Shown here piece by piece: positions 24,356 to 41,024 of a stretch of DNA of 64,000 nucleotides (position 1 is its first letter; every line of letters starts with the position of its first letter). A program made the position numbers and the translations under genes. The stretch lies in NCBI GenBank assembly GCA_965204735.1, contig OZ242008.1:2208001-2272000 (forward strand). Direction: 5' to 3'. Under the pieces are notes generated by a model. That model saw only the letters and a list, made by a program, of their open reading frames with translations. It did not search any database and was not told where the DNA came from. This DNA comes from Longimicrobiales bacterium (lineage in GTDB: Bacteria; Gemmatimonadota; Gemmatimonadetes; Longimicrobiales; Gaopeijiaceae).

Positions 24356-27300
24356 CTAGTCAAAGGCGATCCTGCCGACGAGTCCGACGCGGCGTTCCGG
24401 GGGCTGGAGTCCGTCGGCCGCCTGCTCGCCGAAGAAGTCCATCACCAGGCGGAGGCCGGGGGCCTGCTGCTCGGCGGTCTCGCCGCCCAGCATCGCCCAC
24501 TGGGTCCCCACGTTCAGGCGGTAGCCGGCCGCGCCCTCGCGGCTCCAGCGACCGAACGGCTTGACCTGGCCGCCGCCGGGCAGCAGAACGCCGTAGCCCA
24601 CCTGCATCGCCAGGCGGGACGGCGTCCAGCCTCGTGCGTTCTGGGGCGCTCCGAAGCCGTGGGCGGACGGGAAGCCGTGGGCCGGCACGGCGCCGGGGCT
24701 CGGGGGACCGCCTTGACCGGTGGCGCCGCCGTAGCCGGCTTGGTCGCCGCTGGCGGGCACGCCGCTGCCGGGCTGCGCCGACGGGCCCAGGCCCGGCACG
24801 CCCGCGCTCCGCCACACGTCGTCGCCGCCCTGCCACAACGTCTGCGCGCCGCCCGAGGCATTGCCCCACGACGGCTCCAGCGAGAACGACAGCCCGCCGT
24901 CTTCGCGGCCGGGCTGGATACGCAGCGCCACTGCCGCGCCCCAATCCTTGAAGTTCCGGTCCTGGTGGATCAGCAGCATCCGGCCACGGGCGTCCAGGCT
25001 CAACCCGCTGCCCGCGTGCGTGAAGCCCAGCTCGGCGCCCGCCTCGGCGCCCATCCCCGTCTCCGCGTCGCCCCGATCGTAGCGACCGCCCACCTCGATG
25101 CGCGTGCGCATGGCCACGCCGCCGCTCGTCCACTGCCCGCCCAGCTCGGGCGCCAGCCGCACACGCTGCGCGTCGGCCGTCACCGCCGCCACGTGCACGT
25201 CCGACGCGTCCGTCATCATCCGCACCGCGAAAGCGTCGGCCTTCAGCGCCAAGCCGCCCACCAGCTTCTGGCGCACGCCCAGCGCGCCCATCCGCATCCG
25301 CAGGTCGGCGTCGTAGGTCGGACCCTGCTCGCCCACGTTGGCGGCACCCATTCCCGCACCCGCCAAGCCCCATATCCCGAAGCCGCCCTGCGACGACCAG
25401 CTCAGGTAGGGGTAGAGGCTGGTCAGGTGAGCCTTCGTCTTGCCCGCGCCGTTGATCCCGCTCTCGTAGTTCGCCGCCACGTCGCTGCGCGAGCCGGCCA
25501 CGCCCATCAAGAAGCCCGAGCCGAAGCGGTAGTCCAGACCCACGTACGCCGAGCGGGTGCGGCCGTCCATGGCGAAGTCGTCTTCGGGACGGCCCTCGAA
25601 TTCGCCCACGTTGGCCTGGCCCCACAGCGTCCAGCCGGCCTGGGAGGCCGCCTGCGCCGGGGATGCGTCGGGCGAGCCGCTGGCGGCATCGGCGTCGGCG
25701 CCGCCCTGGCCGTCGGGCGAGCCGCCACCGAAGGAGAGCTGGAACGAGCTCCGGGAGCGGAGGTCGCGGCCTGTCAGCGGGCTGAATGCGACGCCGCCGC
25801 GGGTGCGCTCGGCGCGGCCCGCATCCTCTTCCCGCTGGCCCTGGTACGAGCCGCCCAAGCCGAGGGTGCCGCTCGGAGCGCCGCCCAAGCCCGTCGCGCC
25901 GTCGCCGAAGAAGATGGCGGCCAAGTCCAGCGTCCCGCTCGGGATGCCGCCGGGTCCCGACCCGGTGCCCGGATGCGTGATCTGGAACCCGAGCAGGCCC
26001 GTTGCGTCCCGCACCAGCGACTCGAGTCCGCAACGGCCGCCCGAGACGCCCCCGCCCAAGCCCGCGCCGCCTTCGTCCGGGCCAGCGTGGGCCGATGCCG
26101 TCCTGGCGTGGGCCGACTCGCCCTGGCCTTGGTCCGCACCGCCTTGGCCCGAACCGCCATGGCCCGAGGCCGAGGCGCCCTGGCCCGACTTGCCCTGGCC
26201 CTGGTCCGCACCGGCTGGGCCTGCGGCTGCGCCACCAGCCGCGCCACCGGCTCCGAACGCACGGACCGAGGCCGTGCCGCTGGACACGCCGCCCGCGCCA
26301 CGGCCGCCGCCAAACGCGACGCAGCTCAGCGAGCGCCCGCCCAGCTGCACGTGCGAACGGCCCAGCGAACCCGACGACTCCAACCCCAACCGACCGCCGA
26401 TCGCGTCCACCGTCTCCGTGCCCAGCGACCGTCCGAACGCCGCCAGCGTCAGCTTCAACGCACGCGCCCGATCCGAACGCGACGCCGACACCGTCACGCT
26501 CGCCTGCTGCGTCGCCGTCAAGCCGCCCGCGTCCGTCGCCGTCACCGTCACCGTCGCCGCGCCGATCGCCTGCGGCGCCACCGACAACCGCCCCGCGCCC
26601 GACACCGACGCCGCCGCCACGTCCGGCGACGACGACACCACCACGTAGCTCAGCGCGTCGCCGTCCGGGTCACGGAAGTACTCGCCCAGACCCACCTCCC
26701 ACGGCGCGCCGCCCACCTCCAGCACCGGCGGCGACAGCGAGCCCACCGCCTCCGGCCCCTCGTTCACGTCCAGCAGCGTCACCACGACCGCCGCCTCCGC
26801 CGTCAGACCGCCCGCGTCCGTCACCCGCACCGTCAGCGCGAACTCCGGCGGACCGTCCTCGTAGTTCTCGCCGGCGCCTACGTAGCGCACCTGCCCGCTC
26901 GCGCCGTCCACCTGGAAGCGGCCCGCGTCGCCCTGCGCCAAGCTGTACGTCAGCGCGTCGTCGCGGTCCGGGTCCGTCGCCTCGACCCGTCCCAGCTCCC
27001 GAGGCCCGCGCACGTTCTCCGCCAGCTCGAACGCATATGCGGAGTCCGCGAACGCGGGCGCCTCGTTCACGTCCAGCAGCACCACCTTCACCTTCGCCAC
27101 CGCCGCCAGTCCCGCCCGGTCCGTCGCCACCACCTCGAACTCCCAGCCCTCTGGACCCGTCTCCGCGTCCTCGCCAGCGCCCACGTACCGCACCACGCCG
27201 CTCGACTCGCCCACGTCGAACAGCGCCGCGCCCGCGCCGCTCAAGCTGTAGCGCAGCGTGTCGCCAGCGTCCACGTCCGTCGCCTCGACCGCGCCGAGCT

Positions 27301-30300
27301 CGACCGGGCCCGCCACGTGCTCCGCCAACTCCCACTCCCAGATCGGCTCCACGAACACCGGGCCCTCGTTCCGGTCCTCGAGTGTCACCACCACACGCGC
27401 CCGCGCTGTGAGGCCGCCTCGGTCCGTCGCCGTCATTTCCAGCTCCCAGCTGCCCGGACCCGTCTCCGCATCCTCGCCGGACCCCACGTACCGCACCGCA
27501 CCGCTCGTCGCGTTCACCTTGAACCGCTCGGCGTCGCCCGCCGTCAGCGCGTACGACAGCCAGTCGCCGCCGTCCGGGTCCGTCGCCCGCACCTCGCCCA
27601 GCAGCAGCGGACCACGAGCGTTCTCCGCCAGATCGAAGGCGTACGCAGAGTCGGCGAACGCTGGCCCCTCGTTCACGTTCGTCAGCGCCACCGCCACGAC
27701 CGCCCGCGCGCTCGAACCCGCCAGGTCCGTCGCCGTCACCGCCAGCTCCCACGACTTCGGTCCCGCGCCCTCGTAGTCCTCGCCCGTCCCCACGTACCGC
27801 ACCTCGCCCGTCGCGCCGTCCACTTCGAAGCGGTCGGCGTCGCCCGACGCCAGCCGGTACGTCAGCGTGTCCCCCTCGTCCAGGTCCACCGCCTCCGCCA
27901 CGCCCAGCGCCAGCGGCCCGGCAGCGTTCTCCGCCATCGCGAAGGCGTAGCGCTCGGCCGTGAACACCGGCGCGTCGTTCACGTTCACCAGCCGCACCGT
28001 CACCGTCGCGTCGCCCGTCCGCTCTCCGTCGTCCGCCGTCGCGCGCACGATCATCACGAACTCCGAACGCGACTCCGCGTCCTCGCCCGTCCCCACGTAC
28101 CGCACCTCGCCGGTGCGAGCGTCGACCTCGAAGAGACCCTCGTCGCCCGCCGCCAGAGAGTACGTCACCTCGCCGCCGAAGGGGTCCGTCGCGCTCACCG
28201 TCCCCACCACCACCGGCCCCGACTCGTCCTCCGTCAGCTTGAACTCGTACTCCGCGCGACCGAACACCGGGTCCGTGCCTCCAGCCCCGTTCACCTGGTG
28301 CTCTTCGACGTTCTCCACCGCGTGGCCGCTCAAGTCCAGCGCCGCCGCCGTCGTGCCGCCCGCGATCCGCAGCGCGCCGCCTGCCGCCGTCAGCGCGTCG
28401 GCAGCGATGCTGATCCCGTCCTCGTCCCGGTCCGCAGGCTGCACCACGTACTCGAACACCAGCACCGGCGTGCCCGAGCCCGACACGTAGCTCGCGTGCC
28501 GCACGGCCGTTCCGATCTCGATCGCCAATCGCACGGGAGCGGTCGCAGCCGACATGTGGCCCGCCTGCTGCGGCGCCCCCGCCACCTCCACCGGTCGGCT
28601 GAACGTCACCGCCACCCGGATCACGCTGCGCGGACCGTACAGCCCGTTCGCGCCCGGCGTGCTCGTCACCGTCATCCCCACCACCGCCGGAACCGCCTCG
28701 ACCGTGCCGTCCACCTTGTCGTTCGCAGCCGCCGCGATCGCGTGGCTGCCCAACGCCAGAACCGCCGGACGAACCCCGTCCGCCGTGTTCACGATCGTCG
28801 CGCCGTTCAGCGTCAGCGCCGCAGCAGCCACGCCCACGCCGTCGGCGTCCGCGTCCACGCCGCCCGTGCCGCTGCCGCCACTGCCCGCGCCCTGCACGCG
28901 GTACGCGAACGACAGCGTCGCCGTGCCGCTGCCGCTGGCGTAGCTCGCCTGACGCGTCGCCGTGCCCACCGTCAGCGCCAGCTGCGGCGCGCCCGTCACC
29001 GTCACCGCACGGTCGAACGTCACCTGCACCTCGATCCGCTCGCCCAGGCCGTACGTGTCGCCGCTCTCCGGCGTGCTCGACACTGCGACGCCCGTCGCCG
29101 ACGCGCCCGCCAGCGTGCCGTCCACCTTGTGGCCCGCAGCAGCGCTCAACGCATGGCTGCCCAGTCCCAGAGCCGCTGCAGTCGTGCCGTTGCGGGCGTC
29201 AGCGATCGTCCCGCTGTTCAGCGCCAGCGCACTCGTGCCCACCTCGATCCCGTCGGTGTCGGCGTCCGCCTGCACCACCGTGTACCGGAACGTCAGCGTG
29301 TGCGTGCCCGTACCGCTCGCGTAGTCCGCCTGCCGCGTCTGCGCGCCCACCGTCAGCGCCACCTGCGGCGTGCCCGTCACGCTCACGCGACGGTTGAACG
29401 TCACCTGCACCTCGATCCGCTCGCCCCGACCGTACGTCGTCGCCACCGCCGGCGAACTCGTCAGCGACACGCCGCTCACCGACGCCGCCGTGAACGTCCC
29501 GCCCGCAACCTTGTGGCCCGAGCTGTTGCTCACCGCATGGGCGCCCAGCCCCAGAACGGCGTCCACCGTGCCGTTCGCCACGTCGATCGTCCCGCCGTTC
29601 AGCGCCAGCGCGCTCGCGCCGATGCTCAGCCCGTCGGCGTCCGCGTCCGCCGTCACCACCACGTACCGGAACACCAGCGACGCCGTGCCCGTCCCGCTCG
29701 CGTAGCTCGCCTGCTTCGTCACGGTCCCGATCGTCAGCGCCAGCTGCGGCGTGCCCGTCACGTCCACACCCTTGTTGAACGTCACCGTCGCGACCACCGT
29801 GTCGCCACGCTCGAACGTGTCGCCGATCGGCGGCGACGCGATCGACACGCCGCTCACCCCTGGCGGTCCCTGGGCGCCGTCCACGCGATGGGCCGCGTCG
29901 TTCGATATCGCGTGGCTGCCCAGCCCCAGGCTCGCTGCCGTCGTGCCGTCGCGGGCGTCGGCAATCGCGCCGCCGTTCAGCCCCAGTGCGCTCGCGCCGA
30001 TGCTGAGCCCGTTCGCGTCCGCGTCCCCAGCCACCACCTCGTACCGGAACGTCAGCTGCTTGCCGGCGGTCGCCGAGACGTACGCCGCTTGGCGGGTCTG
30101 CGAACCGATCGTCAGCGCCAGCTGCGGCGCGCCCGTCACCGTCACGTTGCGGTCGAACGTCACCTCGACCTCGATCTGCTCGCTCAACCCGTACGTGCCG
30201 CCGCCCGCCGGGCTGCTCGTGATCGACACCTCGCTCACCGACGACGCCGTGAACGTCCCGCCCGCGACGCGGCGCGCGCCGTCGTTGCCGATCGCGTGGT

Positions 30301-33300
30301 GCGCCAAGCTCAGCAGGGCGTCCGTCGTTCCGCCCGCCACGTCGATCGTCCCGCCGTTCAGCGCCAACGCGCTCGCGCCCACGCTCAACCCGTCCGTGTC
30401 CGCGTCCGCCTGCACCACCACGTACCGGAACACCAGCGCCGTCGTCCCCGTCCCCGATGCGTAGCCCGCCTGCCGCGTCTGCGAACCAATCGACAACGCC
30501 AGCTGCGGCGTCCCCGTCACGTCCACCGCCTTGTTGAACGTCACCGTCGCAACCACCGTGTCGCCCCGCTCGAACGTGGCGCCCACCGGCGGCGCAGCCA
30601 CCGACAGCCCCACCACCCCCGGCGGACCCAAGCTGCCATTCACCTTGTGCGACGCGTCGTTCGTCACCGCGCTCGCGCCCAGCCCCAGCGCCGCAGCCGC
30701 AGCGCCCGGACGCACGTCCGCGATCGTGCCGCCGTTCAGCACGAGCGCGCTCGCGCCGATGCTGATTCCGTCGGTGTCCGCGTCCGCCGGACGGACCGCG
30801 TAGGCAAACACCAGCGTGTCCGCCTTGCTGGAAGCGGCCACGTAGCTCGCCTGCCGCGTCTGCGTCCCGATCGTCAGCGCCAGCCGCGGCGAGCCCGTCA
30901 CCGCCACCGGTCGCCCGAACGCCACCTTCACCTCGATCTGCTCGCCCAGCTGGTACGTGCTCGCGCTCGCCGGGGTGCTCGAGATCGTCATCGCAGTCAC
31001 CGCCGGCGTCGTGAACGTGCCGCCCGCAACCTTGTGGCCCGCGCTGTTCGTCACCGCGCTCGCGCCCAACCCCAGCGTCGCGTCCAGCGTCCCACCCGCG
31101 ACCCGGATCGTCCCGCCGTTCAGCGCCAACGCGCTCGCGCCGATGCTCAACCCGTCCGCGTCCGCGTCGCCGCTCGCCACCACGTACCGGAACACCAGCG
31201 TGTCCGTACCCGTCCCGCTCGCGTACGCCGCCTGCCTGGTCGCGCTCCCGATCGTCAGCGCCAGACGCGGCACGCCCGTCACGTCCACCGACCGGTTGAA
31301 CACCAGCGACACCTCGATCGTCTCGCCCCGCTCGAAGGTGTCGCCCACCGTCGGCGCACTGATCGACAGCCCGGTCACCCCCGGCGGCCCCCGGCTGCCG
31401 TCCACCTTGTGCGCCGCCGCGTTCGCAATCGCGTTGCTCCCCAGTCCCAGGCCCGCCGCCGTCGTGCCGTCGCGCGCGTCGGCGATCGTCCCGCCGTTCA
31501 GCGCCAACGCGCTCGCACCGATGCTGATCCCCGTCGAGTCCTCGTCCGCCGCCACCACCGTGTAGCCGAACACCAGCGTCGCCGTCCCGCTCCCGCTCGC
31601 GTACGACGCCTGCCGCGTCTGACTCCCGATCCCCAAAGCCAGCTGCGGCCCGCCCGTCACCGTCACCGGGCGCGTGAACCCAACCTCGACCTCGATCACC
31701 TCCGTTCGTCCGTAGATGCTGTCGCTCGACGGAGCACTCGAAATCGTCACCCCGCTCACCGCCGCAGCCGTGAACGTCCCGCCCGCAACCTTGTAGTTCC
31801 CGTTGTTGGTGACGTAGTGATCGCGCAGGCTCACCACCGCGTCCGTCGTACCGCCCGACACCCGGATCGTCCCGCCGTTCAGCGCCAACGCGCTCGTGCC
31901 GATGCTGATCCCGTCCGCGTCCACGTCCGCTGTCACCACCACGTACCGGAACGCCAGCGTGTCCGTGCCCGTGCCAGCAGCGTAGCTCGCCTGCTTCGTC
32001 GCGCTCCCGATCCCCAGCGCCAGCTGCGGCGTACCCGTCACCGCCACCGCCTTGTTGAACGCGACCTTCACCTCGATCGTCTCGCCACGCTCGAACGTGT
32101 CGCCCACATGAGGCGAGCCGATCGACAGCGCACTCACACCCGGCGGTCCGAGCGCGCCGTCCACCTTATGCGACGCCGCGTTCGCGATCGCGCTGGATCC
32201 CAGTCCCAGGCTTGCCGCCGTCGAACCGTCCCGCGCGTCGTTGATCGTGCCGCTGTTCAGAGCCAACGCGCTCGCGCCGACGCTGACGCCGTCGCTGTCC
32301 GCGTCCGCAGCCGCCACCTCGTAGCCGAACGTCAGCGTCTTCGTCCCCGTCCCGCTCGCGTACTCCGCCTGTCGCGTCACCGCGCCCACCGTCAGCGCCA
32401 GCTGCGGCGTGCCCGTCACGTTCACCGGCCGCGCGAATGTCACCTCGACCTCGATCTCCTCGCCCAGACCGTACGTGTCCCCGCTCGACGGAGCACTCGA
32501 GATCGTCACCCCGCTCACCGACGACGCCGTGAACGTCCCGCCCGCCACCTTGTGCCCCGTGCTGTTCGTCACCGCGTGCGTGCTCAGCCCCAAGGTCGCG
32601 TCCAGCGTCCCGCCCGACAGCCGGATCGTCCCGCTGTTCAGCGCCAGCGCGCTCGCACCGATGCTCAACCCGTCCGCGTCCACGTCCGCCGTCACCACCG
32701 TGTACTGGAACACCAGCGCCGTCGTGCCCGTGCCGCTCGCGTACGACGCCTGCCGCGTCTGCGTACCGATCCCCAGCGCCAGCTGCGGCGTCCCCGTCAC
32801 GTCCACCGGCCGGTTGAACGTCACCGTCGCCGCAATCACGTCGCCCCGCTCGAACGTGTCGCCCACCGGCGGCGACGCGACGACCAACCCCGTCACCCCC
32901 GGCGGTCCCTGCGCGCCGTCCACCTTATGCGCCGCGGCGTTCGATATCGCGTAGCTCCCCAGGCCCAGGCCCGCCGCCATCGTCGTGTCGCGAGCGTCCG
33001 AGATCGTGCCGCCGTTCAGCGCCAATGCGCTCGCGCCGATGCTGATCCCGTTCGCGTCCGCGTCCGCCGCCGCCACCACGTAGCCGAACGTCAGCGTCTT
33101 CGTACCCGTCCCGCTCGCGTACTCCGCCTGCCGCGTCTGCGAACCAATCGTCAGCGCCACCCGCGGCGTGTCCGTCACCATCACCCGCCGGTTGAACGTC
33201 ACCTCGACCTCGATCTGCTCCGTCCGGCCGTACGTGCTGTCGCTCGCCGGAGCGCTCGTGATCGACACGCCCGCAACCGTCGCCGCCGTGAACGTCCCGC

Positions 33301-36300
33301 CGTTCACCACCAGGAAGTTGCTGAACGCCTGGTGCTCCAAGCTCAGCAGGGCGTCCGTCGTTCCCCCCGCCACGTCGATCGTCCCCCCGTTCAGCGTCAA
33401 CGCGCTCGCGCCCACGCTCAACCCGTCCGCGTCCACGTCCGCAGCCACCACCACGTACCGGAACACCAGCGACGTCGTCCCCGTGCCCGACGCGTACGCC
33501 GCCTGCCGCGTCTGCGCGCCTATCCCCAGCGCCAGCTGCGGCGTCCCCGTCACGTCCACCGACTTGTTGAACCGCACCGTCGCAACCACCGTGTCGCCGC
33601 GCTCGAACGTCGTGCCCGTCGGCGGCGACGCCACCGTCAGGCCCGTCACGCCCGGCGGTCCCAGCCCGCCGTTCACCTTGTGCGCCGCAGCGTTCGTCAC
33701 CGCGCTCGACCCCAGCCCCAGCGCAGCAGCAGCAGCGCCCGGCCGCACATCGGCGATCGCACCGCCGTTCAACGTCAACGCGCTCGCGCCGATGCTGAGC
33801 CCGTCCGCGTCCGCGTCCGAAGGACGAACCGCGTACCCGAACACCAGCGTGTCCACCTTGCTCGAAGCCGAATCGTAGACCGCCTGACGAGTGACCGTCC
33901 CGATCGTCAGCGCCAGCCGCGGCGTGCCCGTCACCGCCACCGGTCGCCCGAACGCCACCTTCACCTCGATCTGCTCGCCCAACTGGTACGTCTGACCGCT
34001 CGCCGGAGCGCTCGACACCGTCACCGCAGTCACTGCCGGCGTCGTGAACGTACTGCCAGACACCTGGTGGCCGCCACTGTTCGTCACCGCGCTCGCGCCC
34101 AGCCCCAACGTCGCGTCCAGCGTCCCGCCAGCCAGACGGATCGTCCCGCCGCTCAACGTCAGCGCGCCCGCTCCGATGCTCAATCCGTCCGCGTCCGCGT
34201 CGCCGCTCGCCACCACGTACTGGAACAGCAGCCCCGTCGTGCCCGTGCCGCTCGCGTAGCTCGCCTGCCTCGTCGCTGAACCGATCGTCAGCGCGAGCCG
34301 CGGCGTGCCCGTCACGTCCACCGCGCGGTTGAACTCCAGCTCGACCGCGATCGTCTCGCCACGCTCGAACACGTCGCCCACCACAGGAGAACTGATCGTC
34401 AGCGCATTCACCCCCGGCGGTCCCAGGTTGCCGTCCACCTTGTGCGCAGCAGCGTTCGATATCGCGTGCGTGCCCAAGCCCAGGCTCGCGTTCGTCGTGC
34501 CGCCCGCGATCCGGATCGCGCCGCCGTTCAGCGCCAAAGCGCTCGCACCGATGCTGATCCCCGTCGAATCCGCGTCCGCAGCCACCACCGTGTACGCGAA
34601 CCTCAACGTCCGCGTGCCCGTACCCCCCGCGTAATACGCGAACCTGCTCACGCTCCCGACGGTGATCAACACGTATGGCGTCCCGAGAGTTGTCGCCCCC
34701 GGCGTGCCCGTCACGTCCACCGAACGCTCGAACTCGACCTCCACCTCGATCGCCTCCGTACGTCCGTACGTGCTGTCGCTCGCCGGCGCACTCGTGATCG
34801 ACACGCCGCTCACCACCGGCGCCACCTCCTTCGTCCCGTCCACCTGGTACGCCACCGCGTCCGCGAAGTTCCACGGCGCCAACGTCAGCCGAGCGTCCGT
34901 CGTCGTGCCCGTCGCACGGATCGTCGCGCCGCCCGGCAGCGTCAACGCGCTCGCACCGATGCTGATCCCCGTCGAGTCCGCGTCCGCCGCAACCACCGTG
35001 TAGCAGAACACCAAGATGACGCCGCCCCCTGTCGTGCCGCACAGCGCAGCGCTCCGCGTCTGCGAACCGATCCCCAGCGCCAAACTCGGCGTCCCCGTCG
35101 CCGTGACGCCCGTGTTGAACCCGACCCCCACGCGAATCAGGTCGCCCAGACCGTACACGCTGTCCGTGCTCGCGTAGTTGATCCCGGCGAGCAGCGTCGC
35201 CGACATGAAGAACGCGCTCGTCACGTACGGAACGTCGCCCGCCACCTTGTGCGCCCCAGCATTCGCGATCGCATGGCTCCCCAACCCCAAACTCGCCGCC
35301 GTCGAGCCGTCCCGAGCGTCCACGATCGTTCCGCTGCCCTGCAACGTCAGCGCGCTCGACCCGACGCCGATCCCGTCCCCGTCCGCGTCCGACGCCGCCA
35401 CCACGTACCGGAACTCCAGCGTCTTCGTGCCGCTCCCGCTCGCATAGGTCGCCTGACGCGTCGAGTCGCCAATCGCCAGCGCCAGCTGCGGGACCGGGAG
35501 CGTCACCGTCACCGGCCGCACGAACGACACCTCCACCTCGATCGTGTCGCCCTGCACGTACGTGGCGTCCGCCGCCGGAGCGCTCGTGATCGCCAACCCG
35601 CTCGGCGACGACGCCGTGAACGTCGCGCCCGACACCTTGTGGCCCGCGCTGTTCGTGACCGCGCTCGCGCCCAGCCCCAAGACCGCGTCCGTCGTCGTGC
35701 CCATGCGTCGGATCGTACCGCCGTTCAGCACCAGCGCGTTCGCGCCGATGCTGGCCCCGTCCGCGTCCGCGTCCGCCTGCACCACCGTGTAGCTGAACGT
35801 CAGCGTCGCCGTGCCGCTGCCGCTCGCGTAGCCCGCCGACCTCGTGGCCGCGCCAAGCCACAACCGCACCTGCGGCGTGCCCGTCACCGCCACCGCACGG
35901 TTGAACGTCACCGTCACGACTATCGCGTCGCCCCGCTCGAACGTGTCGCCCGTCGGCGGCGAACCCATCGACACCCCCGTCACCCCCGGCGGTCCCTGCG
36001 CGCCGTCCACCTTGTGCGCCGCAGCATTCGCGATCACGTTCGTCCCCAACCCCAAGTTCGCGGCCGCCGTGCCGCCCGCGATCCGGACCGTCCCGCCGTT
36101 CAGCGCCAATGCGCTCGCGCCGATGCTGACCCCCGTCGTGTCCCTGTCCGTCGCCGCAACCGTGTAGCGGAACCTCAACGAGCGCGTTCCGGTGCCCGAA
36201 GAGTAGTCCGCCTGCCGCGTCTGCGTCCCGATCCCCAGCGCCACCTGCGGCGTTCCCGTCGCGTCCACCGGGCGGTCGAAGTCGACCTTGACCTCGATCG

Positions 36301-39238
36301 TGTCGCCTGTCCCGTACGTCGAGTCGGCGCCCGCGTCGCTGCTGATCGACACGCCGCTCACGTTCGGCGCCGCCTCCTGGGCGCCGTCAACCTGGAAAGC
36401 CATGTCGTTCGTGACCTCGTATCCGGCCAACGACACGTTCGCGTCCGTCGTCGTCCCCTGCCGCCGAATGTAGGCCCCCGACCCGGCAGGGAACGTCAGC
36501 GCGGTCGCGCCGATGCTGATCCCCGTCGAGTCCCTGTCCGCCGCCACGACCGTATGGCAGAAAATCGCGTATCTGACGGTCTGGCCGCACAGCGGAGCCT
36601 GCCGCGTCTGCGTCCCGATCCCCAGCGCCAGCTGCGCCTGCGTCGCCGTCGTCGACGCAATCCTAACGTTCGTGTTGAACTCAACGGCCACCCGAATCTC
36701 GTCCCCAAGCCCGAACACGCTGTCCGTGCCCGCCTGGAAGGTCTGTGTCCACTGCGCGTTCACGAAAAACATGTCCGTCACGTAGGGCACGTCGCCCGTC
36801 ACCTTGTGCCCCGCCGCGTTCGAGATCGCGTTCGAACCCAACCCCAAGTTCGCGGCCGTCGTGCCGCCCGCGATCCGGATCGTCCCGCCGTTCAGCGCCA
36901 ACGCGCTCGCGCCGATGCTCACCCCCGTCGTGTCCATGTCCGCCACGACCACTGTATAGCGGAACCTCAATGACTTGGTGCCCGTGCCCGCCGCGTACTC
37001 CGCCTGCCGCGTCAGCGTGTCGACCCCCAGCGCCACACGCGGCGTTCCCGTCACGTCCACCGGACGGTCGAAGTCGACCTTGACCTCGATCACGTTCCCT
37101 TCGGCGTACGCGCTGTCAGCGCCCGGGTCGCTGCTGATCGTCACGCCGCTGACGTTCGGCGCCACCTCCACCGTGCCGTCAACCTGGTAGGCCACATTGT
37201 TCGTGAACGTGTGGTCAGCCAGCGACACGTTCGCGTCCGTCGTCGTCCCCTGCCGCCGAATGTAGGCCCCCGACCCGGCAGGAAACGTCAGCGCGTTCGC
37301 GCCGATGCTGATCCCCGTCGAATCCCTGTCCGCCGCCACGACCGTATAGCAGAAGAACGCAAACCTGGGGTTCTGGCCGCACAGCGGGGCCTGCCGCGTC
37401 TGCGTCCCGATCCCCAGCGCCAGTTGCGCCTGCGTCGCCGTCGTCGTCGCAATACGAACGTTCGTGTTGAACCCAACGATCACGCGAACCACATCCCCCG
37501 ATCCGAACACGCTGTCCGTGCCGGCATGGAATATCTGCACCCCCTGCGGGTTCGCGATAAAGATCGTCGTCACGTAGGGCACGTCGCCCGTCACCCTGTG
37601 CCCCGCCGCGTTCGAGATCGCGTGGCCGCCCAAACCAAGGTTCGCGTTCGCCGATCCGCCCTTGAGCTCGATCGTCCCGCCGTTCAGCGCCAACGCGCTC
37701 GCGCCGATGCTGATGCCGTCCGCGTCCGCGTCCGCCACGACCACTGTATAGCGAAACCGCAATGAATTGGTGCCCGTGCCCGCCGCGTAGCCCGCCTGCC
37801 GCGTCTGCGTCCCGATCCCCAGCGCCACCTGCGGCGTTCCCGTCACGTCCACCGGACGGTCGAAGTCGACCTTGACCTCGATCACGTTCCCTTCCGCGTA
37901 CGCGCTGTCAGAGCCCGGATCGCTCGCAATCGACACGCCGCTCACGTTCGGCGCCACCTCCTTCGTGCCGTCCACCTTGAAAGCAGCATTGTCCGTGTTG
38001 TCGTGCGCCGCCAGCGACAGGATCGCGTTCGTCGACGTGCCCTGCCGGCGGATCGCGCCCCCGGGTATCGTCAGCGCGTTCGCGCCGATGCTGATCCCGG
38101 TCGAATCCCTGTCCGCCGCCACGACCGTGTAGTTGAAGTACAGCGAGTGGGCGGTAAACGCGTAGAAGGTCGCGCTTCTCGTGTTCGCCCCGATGGTCAA
38201 GGCCAGCCGCGGCCACTGAGTGTGCCAGCTGATCGGCCTGTCGAACGTCACCTTCACCCTGATGACGTCTTCCAGCCCGAAGGTGCTGTCCGCCGCAGCC
38301 TGCGTCATGACAGCGCCTTGTGCGGTGATGTATTCCACGGCGGATACGACCGGCGCCGTCACCTTGGTGCCGTCCACCTTGAAGGCCACATTGTTCGTGA
38401 CCTGGTGGTCAGCCAGCGACAGGTCGGCGTTCGTCGTCGTCCCCGCGGCAACGACCCGGGCTCCGCCAGGCAGCGTCAGCGCGTTCGCGCCGATGCTCAA
38501 CCCGTCCGAGTCGCTGTCCGCCGCCACGACCGTGTAGCAGAAGATCAAGAAGGACGCCACTGAGTTGCACAGCGGCGCACTCCGCGTCTGCGACCCGATG
38601 TTCAGCGCCAGCTGCGGCGTTCCCGAGCCGCTCACGTCCCTGCTGAATCTGACGCCCACCCTGATCCGGTCGCCCACCCCGTAGACGCTGTCGGCCTGTT
38701 CGAGGTTCGCTAGGAGGATCTGGACTCCGCGGGTCGGATGAAGGAACCAAACGGACACCACGGCGGGAACGTCGCCCTGCACCTTGTGGGCCGTCGCATT
38801 CGAGATTGCATGGGTGCCCAGCCCCAGGTTCGCGGCCGTCGCGCCGCCCGCGATCTGGATCGTACCGCTGTTGAGTGCCAGCGCGCTCGCGCCGATGCTG
38901 ATCCCGTCCGCATCGACGTCCGTGGTCGCTACCGTGTAGCGGAAAGTCAGCGTGCTCGTGCCCGTCCCGCTTGCGTAATTCGCCTGCTGCGTCGCCGCGC
39001 CGATCGTCAGCGCCAGCTGCGGCGTGCCCGTCACGTCCACCGACTGGTCGAAACGAACTTCGACCCCGATCACGTCGGTCGCCGCGTACGTCGAGTCGAC
39101 GCCCGCGTTGCTGCTGATCGACACGCCGCTCACGTTCGGCGCCTGGCCGCTCGCGGCGACCGGCAACCCGGCGGCAACCAGCCCGGCGACCACCAGCGCC
39201 AGGCCGAGAGCCGAAAGAAGCCTTCGCACTACCCACAT
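24356..39238 (-). CDS. Giant repetitive surface protein/adhesin A (~4960 aa): signal peptide, 28 Ig-like repeats, 5 cadherin-like domains, 1 Ig-like domain, autotransporter-like beta-barrel
   Basis: Uninterrupted ORF. ATG 39238 has AGGTGG SD and signal peptide MWVVRRLLSALGLALVVAGLVAAGLPVAASG-Q. Repeat consensus VTGTPQLALTIG..TRQASYASGTGT..L.F.Y.V...DAD.DG.SIGASALALNGGTI. Cadherin motifs PVF, ATDPD, DVNE. C-terminal amphipathic strands. Upstream in-frame ATGs exist (39331, 39388, 39421). Confidence 0.9.
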   Translation of the reverse strand: MWVVRRLLSALGLALVVAGLVAAGLPVAASGQAPNVSGVSISSNAGVDSTYAATDVIGVEVRFDQSVDVTGTPQLALTIGAATQQANYASGTGTSTLTFRYTVATTDVDADGISIGASALALNSGTIQIAGGATAANLGLGTHAISNATAHKVQGDVPAVVSVWFLHPTRGVQILLANLEQADSVYGVGDRIRVGVRFSRDVSGSGTPQLALNIGSQTRSAPLCNSVASFLIFCYTVVAADSDSDGLSIGANALTLPGGARVVAAGTTTNADLSLADHQVTNNVAFKVDGTKVTAPVVSAVEYITAQGAVMTQAAADSTFGLEDVIRVKVTFDRPISWHTQWPRLALTIGANTRSATFYAFTAHSLYFNYTVVAADRDSTGISIGANALTIPGGAIRRQGTSTNAILSLAAHDNTDNAAFKVDGTKEVAPNVSGVSIASDPGSDSAYAEGNVIEVKVDFDRPVDVTGTPQVALGIGTQTRQAGYAAGTGTNSLRFRYTVVVADADADGISIGASALALNGGTIELKGGSANANLGLGGHAISNAAGHRVTGDVPYVTTIFIANPQGVQIFHAGTDSVFGSGDVVRVIVGFNTNVRIATTTATQAQLALGIGTQTRQAPLCGQNPRFAFFCYTVVAADRDSTGISIGANALTFPAGSGAYIRRQGTTTDANVSLADHTFTNNVAYQVDGTVEVAPNVSGVTISSDPGADSAYAEGNVIEVKVDFDRPVDVTGTPRVALGVDTLTRQAEYAAGTGTKSLRFRYTVVVADMDTTGVSIGASALALNGGTIRIAGGTTAANLGLGSNAISNAAGHKVTGDVPYVTDMFFVNAQWTQTFQAGTDSVFGLGDEIRVAVEFNTNVRIASTTATQAQLALGIGTQTRQAPLCGQTVRYAIFCHTVVAADRDSTGISIGATALTFPAGSGAYIRRQGTTTDANVSLAGYEVTNDMAFQVDGAQEAAPNVSGVSISSDAGADSTYGTGDTIEVKVDFDRPVDATGTPQVALGIGTQTRQADYSSGTGTRSLRFRYTVAATDRDTTGVSIGASALALNGGTVRIAGGTAAANLGLGTNVIANAAAHKVDGAQGPPGVTGVSMGSPPTGDTFERGDAIVVTVTFNRAVAVTGTPQVRLWLGAATRSAGYASGSGTATLTFSYTVVQADADADGASIGANALVLNGGTIRRMGTTTDAVLGLGASAVTNSAGHKVSGATFTASSPSGLAITSAPAADATYVQGDTIEVEVSFVRPVTVTLPVPQLALAIGDSTRQATYASGSGTKTLEFRYVVAASDADGDGIGVGSSALTLQGSGTIVDARDGSTAASLGLGSHAIANAGAHKVAGDVPYVTSAFFMSATLLAGINYASTDSVYGLGDLIRVGVGFNTGVTATGTPSLALGIGSQTRSAALCGTTGGGVILVFCYTVVAADADSTGISIGASALTLPGGATIRATGTTTDARLTLAPWNFADAVAYQVDGTKEVAPVVSGVSITSAPASDSTYGRTEAIEVEVEFERSVDVTGTPGATTLGTPYVLITVGSVSRFAYYAGGTGTRTLRFAYTVVAADADSTGISIGASALALNGGAIRIAGGTTNASLGLGTHAISNAAAHKVDGNLGPPGVNALTISSPVVGDVFERGETIAVELEFNRAVDVTGTPRLALTIGSATRQASYASGTGTTGLLFQYVVASGDADADGLSIGAGALTLSGGTIRLAGGTLDATLGLGASAVTNSGGHQVSGSTFTTPAVTAVTVSSAPASGQTYQLGEQIEVKVAFGRPVAVTGTPRLALTIGTVTRQAVYDSASSKVDTLVFGYAVRPSDADADGLSIGASALTLNGGAIADVRPGAAAAALGLGSSAVTNAAAHKVNGGLGPPGVTGLTVASPPTGTTFERGDTVVATVRFNKSVDVTGTPQLALGIGAQTRQAAYASGTGTTSLVFRYVVVAADVDADGLSVGASALTLNGGTIDVAGGTTDALLSLEHQAFSNFLVVNGGTFTAATVAGVSITSAPASDSTYGRTEQIEVEVTFNRRVMVTDTPRVALTIGSQTRQAEYASGTGTKTLTFGYVVAAADADANGISIGASALALNGGTISDARDTTMAAGLGLGSYAISNAAAHKVDGAQGPPGVTGLVVASPPVGDTFERGDVIAATVTFNRPVDVTGTPQLALGIGTQTRQASYASGTGTTALVFQYTVVTADVDADGLSIGASALALNSGTIRLSGGTLDATLGLSTHAVTNSTGHKVAGGTFTASSVSGVTISSAPSSGDTYGLGEEIEVEVTFARPVNVTGTPQLALTVGAVTRQAEYASGTGTKTLTFGYEVAAADADSDGVSVGASALALNSGTINDARDGSTAASLGLGSSAIANAASHKVDGALGPPGVSALSIGSPHVGDTFERGETIEVKVAFNKAVAVTGTPQLALGIGSATKQASYAAGTGTDTLAFRYVVVTADVDADGISIGTSALALNGGTIRVSGGTTDAVVSLRDHYVTNNGNYKVAGGTFTAAAVSGVTISSAPSSDSIYGRTEVIEVEVGFTRPVTVTGGPQLALGIGSQTRQASYASGSGTATLVFGYTVVAADEDSTGISIGASALALNGGTIADARDGTTAAGLGLGSNAIANAAAHKVDGSRGPPGVTGLSISAPTVGDTFERGETIEVSLVFNRSVDVTGVPRLALTIGSATRQAAYASGTGTDTLVFRYVVASGDADADGLSIGASALALNGGTIRVAGGTLDATLGLGASAVTNSAGHKVAGGTFTTPAVTAMTISSTPASASTYQLGEQIEVKVAFGRPVAVTGSPRLALTIGTQTRQASYVAASSKADTLVFAYAVRPADADTDGISIGASALVLNGGTIADVRPGAAAAALGLGASAVTNDASHKVNGSLGPPGVVGLSVAAPPVGATFERGDTVVATVTFNKAVDVTGTPQLALSIGSQTRQAGYASGTGTTALVFRYVVVQADADTDGLSVGASALALNGGTIDVAGGTTDALLSLAHHAIGNDGARRVAGGTFTASSVSEVSITSSPAGGGTYGLSEQIEVEVTFDRNVTVTGAPQLALTIGSQTRQAAYVSATAGKQLTFRYEVVAGDADANGLSIGASALGLNGGAIADARDGTTAASLGLGSHAISNDAAHRVDGAQGPPGVSGVSIASPPIGDTFERGDTVVATVTFNKGVDVTGTPQLALTIGTVTKQASYASGTGTASLVFRYVVVTADADADGLSIGASALALNGGTIDVANGTVDAVLGLGAHAVSNSSGHKVAGGTFTAASVSGVSLTSSPAVATTYGRGERIEVQVTFNRRVSVTGTPQVALTVGAQTRQADYASGTGTHTLTFRYTVVQADADTDGIEVGTSALALNSGTIADARNGTTAAALGLGSHALSAAAGHKVDGTLAGASATGVAVSSTPESGDTYGLGERIEVQVTFDRAVTVTGAPQLALTVGTATRQASYASGSGTATLSFAYRVQGAGSGGSGTGGVDADADGVGVAAAALTLNGATIVNTADGVRPAVLALGSHAIAAAANDKVDGTVEAVPAVVGMTVTSTPGANGLYGPRSVIRVAVTFSRPVEVAGAPQQAGHMSAATAPVRLAIEIGTAVRHASYVSGSGTPVLVFEYVVQPADRDEDGISIAADALTAAGGALRIAGGTTAAALDLSGHAVENVEEHQVNGAGGTDPVFGRAEYEFKLTEDESGPVVVGTVSATDPFGGEVTYSLAAGDEGLFEVDARTGEVRYVGTGEDAESRSEFVMIVRATADDGERTGDATVTVRLVNVNDAPVFTAERYAFAMAENAAGPLALGVAEAVDLDEGDTLTYRLASGDADRFEVDGATGEVRYVGTGEDYEGAGPKSWELAVTATDLAGSSARAVVAVALTNVNEGPAFADSAYAFDLAENARGPLLLGEVRATDPDGGDWLSYALTAGDAERFKVNATSGAVRYVGSGEDAETGPGSWELEMTATDRGGLTARARVVVTLEDRNEGPVFVEPIWEWELAEHVAGPVELGAVEATDVDAGDTLRYSLSGAGAALFDVGESSGVVRYVGAGEDAETGPEGWEFEVVATDRAGLAAVAKVKVVLLDVNEAPAFADSAYAFELAENVRGPRELGRVEATDPDRDDALTYSLAQGDAGRFQVDGASGQVRYVGAGENYEDGPPEFALTVRVTDAGGLTAEAAVVVTLLDVNEGPEAVGSLSPPVLEVGGAPWEVGLGEYFRDPDGDALSYVVVSSSPDVAAASVSGAGRLSVAPQAIGAATVTVTATDAGGLTATQQASVTVSASRSDRARALKLTLAAFGRSLGTETVDAIGGRLGLESSGSLGRSHVQLGGRSLSCVAFGGGRGAGGVSSGTASVRAFGAGGAAGGAAAGPAGADQGQGKSGQGASASGHGGSGQGGADQGQGESAHARTASAHAGPDEGGAGLGGGVSGGRCGLESLVRDATGLLGFQITHPGTGSGPGGIPSGTLDLAAIFFGDGATGLGGAPSGTLGLGGSYQGQREEDAGRAERTRGGVAFSPLTGRDLRSRSSFQLSFGGGSPDGQGGADADAASGSPDASPAQAASQAGWTLWGQANVGEFEGRPEDDFAMDGRTRSAYVGLDYRFGSGFLMGVAGSRSDVAANYESGINGAGKTKAHLTSLYPYLSWSSQGGFGIWGLAGAGMGAANVGEQGPTYDADLRMRMGALGVRQKLVGGLALKADAFAVRMMTDASDVHVAAVTADAQRVRLAPELGGQWTSGGVAMRTRIEVGGRYDRGDAETGMGAEAGAELGFTHAGSGLSLDARGRMLLIHQDRNFKDWGAAVALRIQPGREDGGLSFSLEPSWGNASGGAQTLWQGGDDVWRSAGVPGLGPSAQPGSGVPASGDQAGYGGATGQGGPPSPGAVPAHGFPSAHGFGAPQNARGWTPSRLAMQVGYGVLLPGGGQVKPFGRWSREGAAGYRLNVGTQWAMLGGETAEQQAPGLRLVMDFFGEQAADGLQPPERRVGLVGRIAFD
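28277..39142 (-). repeat. Array of 28 ~125-aa Ig-like repeats in adhesin A
   Basis: Counted by hand from the translation; PPGV..FERG and xxxVSGV..TYG types alternate. Confidence 0.85.
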
Positions 39239-39294
39239 GGCACGCCACCTGCATCCAGCTTTCGTCCGAGATGGCGAATACTTATTATGGCGAA

Positions 39295-39315
39295 GGGGGG
39301 GGGGGGGGGGGGGGG
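39295..39315. repeat. G21/C21 homopolymer tract upstream of adhesin A (candidate phase-variation tract)
   Basis: 21 consecutive G on the + strand; on the coding strand it is followed by TTCGC-CATAAT (-10-like, 39284-39289). Confidence 0.9.
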
Positions 39316-39433
39316 CGAAATGGAAGCTCATCTTGGCCAAGCTCCGGGAAGGTGGGCGAACGCCGAAGGACAGCACCGTTGGCGGCATGTATCGGTCGGT
39401 CGAATATAGCAGGTTGGTCATCTCCACTCCACG

Positions 39434-39534
39434 CCTTGGGTCGAAGTCATTTGGCGAAGAGGCACTTCCATCGCGGCACCAGCCCCCATGCGGGCCATCC
39501 CGCCACCGGCAAAGAACTCGCAGAAGCTGAACAC
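39434..39534 (-). pseudogene. Truncated, doubly frameshifted N-terminal fragment of a DNA (cytosine-5)-methyltransferase
   Basis: Removing one G and one A from homopolymer runs gives VFSFCEFFAGGGMARMGLVPRWKCLFANDFDPR (C5-MTase motifs I-II). Confidence 0.75.
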
Positions 39535-39557
39535 CCGGGGACTCGTCTTGGGCGTCG

Positions 39558-40073
39558 CTACCGTGGCGACCCTTTGGGCGAAGCAGAGCCTTCCTCCGAT
39601 TTCCACAGTGGAAAAGCGCCTGCTTCTGGATCCCCAGGAAAGAACAGACCCTTTTCGCGATCTGCTCGTTCAGCCTTCTGCCAAGCGTCCAGCAGATCAT
39701 CCCCTCCCCCTTCCGGGGAAGACGGGGCGACACGCGTCCGCTCGGACAGCACCCCGCCGTTGTACGAGCGAAGCAGCTCTTCATGAGCCGCCAAGGTCAA
39801 CTCCATAAAGACACGCGCCCGCTCGGACAGCACGCCGTCGTTGTACGAGCGAAGCAGGTCTTCATGAGCCGCTGCCAGATCTGCGAGATCCTCTGCGCTG
39901 ACCCCCTCGACGGCCTGATCCTCAACGGCCTGGTCCGGCATGGGGGCGTCGCCCCCGCATGCGAGGACCGCGCCGCTGGCTATGAGAACGAGGGCCATGA
40001 CGGACCGCGCCACCACGCGCCCGCCGACCCGAGCGAACGCCCCGTAACAGGCAGCCTTCTTCGACCTGGACAT
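39558..40073 (-). CDS. Hypothetical lipoprotein with an internal 27-aa duplication
   Basis: AAGGAGG RBS, ATG 40073, lipobox AVLAC, repeat AAHE(D/E)LLRSYN(D/G)GVLSER(A/T)RV twice (81-bp period). Confidence 0.7.
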   Translation of the reverse strand: MSRSKKAACYGAFARVGGRVVARSVMALVLIASGAVLACGGDAPMPDQAVEDQAVEGVSAEDLADLAAAHEDLLRSYNDGVLSERARVFMELTLAAHEELLRSYNGGVLSERTRVAPSSPEGGGDDLLDAWQKAERADREKGLFFPGDPEAGAFPLWKSEEGSASPKGSPR

Positions 40074-40181
40074 AAGACAACCTCCTTTGCGGAAAACTGC
40101 CTTTGGGGGACCCGAGCGGCCCCCAGCGATGCCGACAGGCTGGCCCCGCCACGGCGGCCGGCCTCGGTCGGTGTCGACCAC

Positions 40182-41024
40182 CTACCTGCCGATCGCTTCT
40201 GACCCGTCGTCGCGCAACGCGACGGGAGGGCCCAGCACTTCCCGCGCCACAACAAGGCGCCGCAACCCGGCCACAGTGCCGAACCCCATCTCGTTCGCGT
40301 TGGGCGGACGGGCGTCCGGCGTCGGCACGTAGTCGGCGCCGGGCAGCATCGGGGCGGGCTCCGGAGACAACCGATCGCCCGACGTCTGGCGGGCGGGCCC
40401 GGGCGCTACCCTCGGGGTCGCATCCAGGCGCGAGTCCCGTGACCGGACGTCCGGCGTCGGCGTTCTTGAACGCACTTCCACGGGCCTCGGCGCCCTGTCC
40501 CTTTCCGGCGTCGCATCCCACCCCCCGCTCGCTTCCCGGGCATGGCCGGGCACTGGGAACGAAGGCGGGCCCGGCGCCGAACTCCCCGTCGGCTCACCCG
40601 GGCCGGACGCTCGGGTCGGCGAGGGAGGCCGGCGCCCGGTTTCCGCTTTGCCGCCCGAGACCAAGTCCTCCAGCTCCTTCCGTATCTCCGGCGGGACCAG
40701 GATGTCGAACGCCGACTGGCGCTTTCCCGCCGACCGAGGGGCGGCCGTGGAAGGCTGCGGGCGAGGTTGCGGACCCCTCCGCGTCGAGTCCCGCGGCCCC
40801 GGCCTGGCCGTTTCCGGACCGGGAGCCGCCACCGGACCCGGAAACCGCTGGGCTCCGTCCGGGCCGGGCACAGGGCGAGGACGCTCCTGCTCCACCTCGC
40901 CAGCGCCCGACGGCTCGTCCCCTTCGGGCAGGCCCAGGCCGCGCTTCTTCGCCTTCTTCACCACCGCGTCCAGGATCGACAGGACGACGACGACGACCAG
41001 GACCCAGATCTGGTATTCGCCCAT
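40182..41024 (-). CDS. Hypothetical membrane-anchored Pro-rich protein, third gene of the nfeD-floA operon
   Basis: N-terminal TM IWVLVVVVVLSIL, disordered middle, C-terminal LRRLVVAREVLGPPVALR motif typical of genes downstream of floA. Confidence 0.75.
   Translation of the reverse strand: MGEYQIWVLVVVVVLSILDAVVKKAKKRGLGLPEGDEPSGAGEVEQERPRPVPGPDGAQRFPGPVAAPGPETARPGPRDSTRRGPQPRPQPSTAAPRSAGKRQSAFDILVPPEIRKELEDLVSGGKAETGRRPPSPTRASGPGEPTGSSAPGPPSFPVPGHAREASGGWDATPERDRAPRPVEVRSRTPTPDVRSRDSRLDATPRVAPGPARQTSGDRLSPEPAPMLPGADYVPTPDARPPNANEMGFGTVAGLRRLVVAREVLGPPVALRDDGSEAIGR

Follow-up and report, generated by a model that had tools for sequence, protein, structure and literature searches.

We report here that a run of 21 cytosines at the 5' end of a giant adhesin-type gene (gene A) in a sponge-associated Longimicrobiales bacterium probably acts as a translational frameshift switch, housed in a disposable N-terminal extension and ON as assembled. 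The source genome is one 4.14-Mb contig of 69% GC, assigned to Gemmatimonadota, Longimicrobiales by the relatives of its Lon protein, and gene A lies in the 64,000-nt stretch of it that was analysed, below called the window. The layout of the locus, its reading frames, the placement of comparable runs throughout the gene family and the differences in run length between copies are all observed directly.

Gene A would be a simple-sequence contingency locus acting at translation. Transcription would begin upstream, at a predicted extended -10 box, and the ribosome, starting at ATG 39331, would pass through five further codons, the run itself and a linker of 56 nt before entering the signal peptide; start use, export, switching rate and a role in adhesion are the parts of this scheme that we infer. 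Replication slippage would alter the length of the run. With 18, 21 or 24 C the frame would be kept and the full adhesin made with an N-terminal extension of about 31 residues bearing the poly-proline, and this extension would leave with the signal peptide on export, so that the mature protein would be independent of run length. By computation, one C more leads to a stop after 14–15 residues at TAATAA, and one C fewer to a stop after 33–34 residues at the TAG just past ATG 39238. As assembled, gene A (C21) is in frame and ON, and a paralog that carries C27 is OFF. Independent switching of about a dozen adhesin genes would lead a population to present a mosaic of surfaces.

The C21 run and gene A

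A first-pass annotation of the window had singled out this run as its only long homopolymer, 57–77 nt ahead of ATG 39238. The distance and the flanks are confirmed, and so is the singularity, as the next longest C/G runs in the window are two G7 and none exceeds 7 nt. In the genome as a whole there are 27 C/G runs of 12–36 nt, while about 0.09 are expected by extrapolation from the counts of short runs (1419, 168, 15 and 1 for lengths 6, 7, 8 and 9).

The annotation had also allowed for a two-colour poly-G artefact. An origin of the runs in sequencing error, or as functionless repeats in neutral runaway, has virtually no probability left in our judgement and is already largely refuted. Poly-G does lie close to contig ends in the fragmented relatives, as artefacts show, and exact run lengths come from assembly alone. 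The C21 run, however, sits within a single 4.14-Mb contig, the paralog and the sister-species ortholog carry C27 and C24 at the same position, and a contig from another study's sequencing run (run X3, record 12) holds the flank followed without gap by 16 G before it ends, which together speak against a two-colour artefact. Error and neutral drift are further opposed by the runs at adhesin starts across seven genomes of two genera, by the depletion of runs of 7–9 nt, by non-random frame statistics and by independent G runs at the same gene. The C21 run is real. Contigs that cover the locus stop at or near it, which branching or loss of coverage may explain, and the sequencing runs that hold the stretch are, where plainly labelled, sponge or marine metagenomes. 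Two pattern scans of JGI metagenomes returned 0 stretches, and the contigs gave no length distribution. Assembled run lengths may carry long-read error, which makes ON/OFF calls soft.

Table 1. Features of the gene A locus and of adhesin B in the window
Feature	Position	Strand	Remark
C21 run, candidate slippage-prone switch	39295..39315	-	G21 on the plus strand; length as assembled; poly-Pro in every frame
Leader ATG, proposed true start	39329..39331	-	16 nt 5' of run; 4991-aa product at C21
GGAG, SD-like motif for leader ATG	39342..39345	-	
Predicted extended -10 box TGcTATATT	39403..39411	-	inferred transcript start near 39396
Linker, 56 nt, gene frame open	39239..39294	-	
TAATAA in linker, double stop in +2 frame	39287-39282	-	overlaps the CATAAT of the first-pass annotation
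Second SD-like motif, in linker	39251-39245	-	
Second ATG (39238) and putative Sec-type signal peptide (by eye)	39146..39238	-	
TAG in +1 frame, just 3' of second ATG	39231-39229	-	
Giant adhesin-type gene A	24356..39331	-	15 kb
Adhesin B, 3' part, >13,000 aa	50906..64000	-	own C21 outside the window at G000:C1:2299010-2299030

The leader ATG resembles ordinary starts in its SD energy (-5.8) and opening energy (10.2 kcal/mol), and the 16S tail of the genome has a normal anti-SD. ATG 39238 resembles internal ATGs (opening energy 16.0 kcal/mol) and has an SD of its own (-5.9), through which the OFF state may leak. Directly 5' of the run, AAGATGAG is common to gene A, the paralog and the sister-species ortholog. 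The three in-frame ATGs that the first-pass annotation had listed (39331, 39388 and 39421) are present, but only 39331 is kept in relatives: ATG 39421 falls outside the block shared with the paralog, and ATG 39388 is out of register there through a 19-nt duplication. A 5142-aa open reading frame from ATG 39784 was rejected as the true start of gene A, since the paralog has no shared sequence upstream of the -10 box. A separate 171-aa reading frame upstream of gene A (39558-40073 of the window, minus strand) contains a lipobox-like motif and, internally, a duplication of 21 residues, and its search returned no family above cut-off.

The product of gene A consists of tandem β-sandwich repeats of about 127 aa (predicted fold, pLDDT 94) and has cadherin domains (Pfam Cadherin, E 8e-32). 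In a fold search the repeat had weak similarity to Ig-like domains (Z 6–8) and Z scores of 6–7 to S-layer, ice-binding adhesin and invasin domains, the best score (8.1) being to an esterase domain. The cadherin domains and Ig-like repeats are no more than suggestive of surface display or adhesion, and "adhesin" is used here in that sense. In comparison with type Va autotransporters, gene A has a signal peptide (by eye), repeats and a C-terminal region whose language-model features match autotransporter clusters with a score of 0.96, which we take as a lead. Pfam gave no autotransporter match for gene A, and NCBIfam gave none to its C-terminal 714 aa and 0 families for the 11 proteins searched. 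A single-sequence structure model of the C-terminal 600 aa, built without alignment, reached pLDDT 31, and a PDB sequence search gave one match (E 0.075).

Promoter or reading frame

The poly-C promoters of Neisseria, in the porA spacer and at opc, switch transcription. In the style of these and of Bordetella fim, the first-pass annotation had taken the run for the -35/spacer zone of a promoter with CATAAT as its -10 box. In such a switch the run would space an upstream activator or -35 element from CATAAT, and translation would start at ATG 39238. CATAAT does stand where it had been placed (39289-39284), 5 nt 3' of the run, an SD precedes ATG 39238, and the length of the fim C-stretch affects transcription (PMC1891110, in part). 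Promoter-type runs also exist in the family, with C(n) abutting TTGACA in three cases and G14 within TTGACT-18-TATAAT in one. For gene A such a switch is nonetheless unlikely, to the point that we would be surprised to find it. CATAAT is missing from the paralog and from the sister-species ortholog, the contig from the other study's run has a 2-nt deletion at 39285, within the hexamer, and [TC]AnnnT occurs within 14 nt after the run in only 6 of 28 loci. The TAATAA of the same sequence is a double stop in one off frame. A consensus scan of 39100-40300 found no promoter, though the extended -10 box escapes that scan as well. The density of TAnnnT boxes is 7.4 per kb upstream of the runs as against 3.0 per kb in the linkers and 1.1 in the genome, and a promoter at CATAAT would leave the upstream ATG and the open gene frame unexplained.

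Homology between the two paralogs starts at the extended -10 box, 93 nt upstream of the run, and this motif is 4.5-fold enriched upstream of genes (26 matches before 727 genes). The gene A run is therefore probably transcribed, from a start upstream of it. The copies of TTCGCCAT that had been noted at 39294 and 39278 are confirmed, but their 16-bp period is unremarkable: the window has 11 8-mers that recur at this distance and 294 that do so at 9–30 bp, and the paralog has one copy only. The repeat was accordingly rejected as an operator, being at chance level.

Reading-frame control from ATG 39331, which the first-pass annotation had proposed beside the promoter, is supported. Its broader proposal of phase variation is favoured by circumstantial evidence, namely the family-wide placement of runs, near-identical copies that differ in length and mid-gene runs in methyltransferases. 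The annotation was right on the switch and the frame and wrong on the promoter for gene A; the promoter mechanisms that it named occur at other family members. C33, C19 and C26 (G000:C1:1448582-1448614, L045 and L048; L-numbers denote loci, and G000 is the source genome) abut a TTGACA -35 before a divergent family member and are opc-like candidates. Locus L193, in the related genome G003, has its G14 inside the -35/-10 spacer before an adhesin, in a porA-like arrangement, and a G15 at G000:C1:3620537-3620551 is likewise porA-like in position (TTGACA ... TATTAT), with no gene called nearby.

Runs and frames across the adhesin family

The source genome has 17 giant autotransporter-type adhesin genes, 12 of which are fronted by a long C run, and these account for 12 of its 27 long runs. 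Among relatives of the same genus, a run stands at the 5' end of 12 of 16 family genes in G002 (one of these through a link inferred over a contig end), 11 of 17 in G003 and one of seven in G001; in a second genus the counts are 8/12, 6/10 and 1/3 of the fetched loci, three 5' ends not having been reached. The C-terminal domain was matched in 43 of the 151 genomes searched in the taxonomic family. Copies with identical flanks differ in run length (C19/C14 and C20/C18). The first-pass annotation had suggested looking for a similar tract at adhesin B, and a C21 is found at its 5' end (Table 1). Orthologs of this 13,000-aa adhesin in two other species have G12 and G22 on the coding strand (L216 and L220), which points to independent origins of the switch at the same gene; L220 reads start-G22-signal peptide and has no in-frame ATG ahead of the hydrophobic stretch. 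Another family member of 12,965 aa (G000:C1:2771492-2811504) has its last 433 codons in a different frame near the C-terminal domain, through either mutation or assembly error.

Frames were scored at 43 loci from seven genomes in which a C run separates a possible start from the ATG of a signal peptide, the latter picked by eye. The set excludes four promoter-type loci, the G-run loci L216 and L220, L039 (which has a second run further upstream), L221, L222 and runs outside the family. In the common arrangement a start codon is followed by C(n), a short linker, the second ATG and the signal peptide; the runs measure 11–31 nt (median 20) and read, with few exceptions, as C in the mRNA. In 32 loci an open ATG is found no more than 30 nt ahead of the run (background 19%), and in 42 there is an open start of any kind; at L221 and L222 the gene frame is open and neither ATG nor GTG occurs in the 60 nt before the run, so that the ATG count with both included is 32/45. 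G000:24254 has no open start within the range searched. Of the 43 loci, 42 keep the gene frame open (32.2 expected from shuffles); with kin collapsed the figure is 23 of 24 (17.4 expected, P 0.002). The +2 frame has excess stops, being open in 26/43 (31.7 expected) and in 12/24 after collapse (17.3 expected, P 0.009).

The upstream starts are accessible, with a median opening energy of 8.4 kcal/mol as against 10.8 for ordinary starts, and the C run itself increases this accessibility. The second ATGs are buried (16.0 kcal/mol versus 15.4 for internal ATGs). An SD of -4 or better precedes 21 of 42 upstream starts and 7 of 42 second ATGs, an argument weakened by the run-less family members, which also lack a strong SD at the starts that we chose. 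Within the linkers, the motif ARAF shows only synonymous variation; a pooled codon-position test put 13 of the 33 changes in the third codon position, not a significant share (P 0.29), and no coding bias was found in any of the three frames. L212, a paralog without a run, has degenerate C-rich sequence at the run position and is locked in frame. In L223 the usual second ATG has been lost.

The simple frameshift switch may be extended to three positions. A leader one base short would meet its stop on the buried second ATG or shortly after it, and the ribosome would re-initiate at that ATG, giving a fused ON state (0), a coupled ON or low state (+1) and an OFF state (+2); we hold this to be possible though rather improbable. 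Overlapping stop/start motifs are known from translational coupling. Measured from the second ATG, a +1 stop falls in the interval -2..+13 at 42 of 43 loci and in 23 of 24 clusters, by way of several motifs (ATGA 16, GTAG 14, TGATG 9, others 3); the corresponding shares are 49% among ordinary genes (n = 477) and 58% among signal-peptide-like genes (n = 144). The TAG depends on a GTA codon, which is rare (5% of the Val codons early in genes across the genome) and is kept, as is the Met heading the signal peptide, while the neighbours of this Met vary. The changes in a group of G003 loci are synonymous in the +1 frame (RLRP-stop). At L219 a stop in the gene frame inside the linker means that fusion cannot work, and the +1 frame is open for 216 nt up to a TAG at +7. 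The +1 frame is open in 39 of 43 loci (31.9 expected, P 0.004), and +2 is the rare assembled state, with 0 : +1 : +2 at 15 : 22 : 5 in 42 loci that represent paralogs and species, not strains. A run-less member at G000:622344, with a 22-codon leader ending in ATGA, is also in keeping with coupling.

Other observations weigh against coupling. The openness of the +1 frame is no longer significant once kin are collapsed (20/24, P 0.12). Ten of 14 run-less family members share the +1 stop, and such stops are common in GC-rich genes. The signal peptides at the second ATGs descend from few lineages, so the +1-stop counts are not independent. The one-short excess appears in non-adhesin loci too and is also expected from long-read error or from deletion bias in long runs (PMC4085013, in part), and early stops may only limit junk translation. 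In its widest form the proposal is a combinatorial surface code of sponge-associated Longimicrobiales, in which each of a dozen giant adhesins has a three-position poly-C leader that sets whether, and how much of, a gene of 15–40 kb is translated, some loci (L219) being expressed only via coupling; we put it forward tentatively, with the odds against it. The run-less member itself (G000:C1:622344-627059) has TATAAT with an ATG 5 nt later, its 22-codon leader ending on the signal-peptide start, and is possibly a leaderless gene in a fixed coupled state.

Run length could also act in a graded way through the leader RNA, by tuning how the mRNA folds, how it pairs with a G-rich small RNA or how ribosomes stall on poly-proline, with no role for the frame. 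EF-P relieves poly-proline stalling, and both EF-P and tRNA-Pro(GGG) are encoded in the genome. The length of the runs, their near-constant C on the mRNA and the startless loci L221 and L222 agree with such control, for which there are precedents in RepG acting on a G repeat in Helicobacter (PMC8295292, in part) and in the hmw 5'-UTR hairpin (PMC12721329, in part). Against it, the gene A leader folds worse than its shuffles (z +1.65), 1 of 36 pairs covaries across seven aligned leaders, and the adhesin B orthologs have G12 or G22 in place of C, which agrees with a role in the frame but not with one specific to C. A conserved leader RNA structure was rejected, the long-range pairing over ATG 39238 in the minimum-energy fold being absent from the centroid. 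As the sole explanation, leader-RNA tuning is very unlikely; it could add to the frame switch. Loss of mismatch repair as the cause was rejected, both MutS and MutL being present with open reading frames, a point that also tells against the frameshift switch. Recombination in gonococcal pilE is said to be driven by a G-quadruplex; a mechanism of this kind is not favoured here, as orthologs carry the G run on either strand.

Other long runs and known contingency loci

Among the non-adhesin runs, 16 of 58 have an ATG at most 10 nt away (background 6%), and runs lie inside or just after the start of genes for a DISARM DrmMI, a restriction-modification fusion, PglX, a sugar transferase and a sulfotransferase. 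Surface, glycosylation and methylase genes are the usual cargo of contingency loci (PMC3711429, in part). The DrmMI methylase (L180, G000:C1:2687460-2687477) has C18 in mid-gene, its halves matching profile positions 7-579 and 598-1318 out of frame, and is a candidate phase-variable anti-phage methylase. A type IIG/I restriction-helicase-methylase fusion (G000:C1:3424558 L182, L036, L069 and L088) shows a run in each of the four congeners, at much the same position (C13, C18, C13 and C26), three in frame and one out. An SspD-like gene with an SGGRSS motif (G000:C1:4095654 L185, L034 and L077) begins ATG-C(n) in three genomes, in each case one base too long for the frame. A cluster of membrane and SGNH-type genes (G000:C1:967590-985243, L023, L028 and L029) has four C runs, with near-identical copies at C19 out of frame and C14 in frame. 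G003 contains dispersed small reading frames with a strong SD-ATG followed by C14-C22 and a Cys-rich C-terminus (L049, L050, L065, L071-L075, L188, L189 and L198), together with a second such family in tandem (L190); these are possibly phase-variable peptide precursors.

In pilC of Neisseria a homopolymer reportedly lies at the signal-peptide position. In nalP of N. meningitidis and bapC of Bordetella, which encode surface proteins, a C/G homopolymer within the coding frame gives slipped-strand ON/OFF switching (PMC5472700 and PMC1891110, both in part). Gene A has all sequence-level features of this kind of switch: a run far beyond background, in frame after a conserved ATG, truncation by a one-base change, and lengths that vary between copies. 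It differs in that the organism is a non-pathogen of another phylum, in its family's runs of 11–31 nt, in the second ATG that follows and in the roughly dozen paralogous genes of 2,000–13,000 codons per genome, and the present case is made from sequence. In meningococci, 19 of 55 variable repeats are flanked by several in-frame ATGs, for which start-site switching that tunes the level of expression was proposed in silico (PMC5084427, in part). Gene A shares with them a run between start codons, but its downstream ATG is buried and has an overlapping +1 stop, which suggests coupling. It resembles Bordetella fim2/fim3/fimX and Neisseria porA (spacer) and opc in having a long C run close to the 5' end of a surface gene, and true analogues of these stand at four other family members; the run of gene A differs in following both the likely -10 box and a conserved ATG. 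With roughly 27 long G/C runs to a genome, in genes for surface structures, glycosylation and restriction-modification, the repertoire recalls phasevarion methyltransferases and the contingency repertoires of Campylobacter, with 29 loci in C. jejuni (PMC4965091, in part). The present runs have about double the length, the genome has mismatch-repair genes, and DISARM and BREX methylases are among the cargo. The repertoire is unusually large for the known homopolymer-switch kind. A literature search, with most subscription journals outside its scope, found no work on poly-C switching in sponge symbionts or Gemmatimonadota, and none joining phase variation or repeat control to translational coupling.

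Homopolymer phase variation has been described mostly from animal pathogens, and an uncultured symbiont lineage of Gemmatimonadota here appears to place it before most of its largest genes and in anti-phage methylases. One consequence is for annotation, in that such genes are given a wrong start or look like pseudogenes. Per-read counts of run length in long-read sponge metagenomes would address switching directly. If the +1 state is coupled, a graded setting would be added to a switch usually seen as binary. If the frameshift switch holds true, sponge symbionts would hedge their surfaces against phage, host filtering or the cost of proteins of 5,000–13,000 residues, as pathogens do against antibodies.
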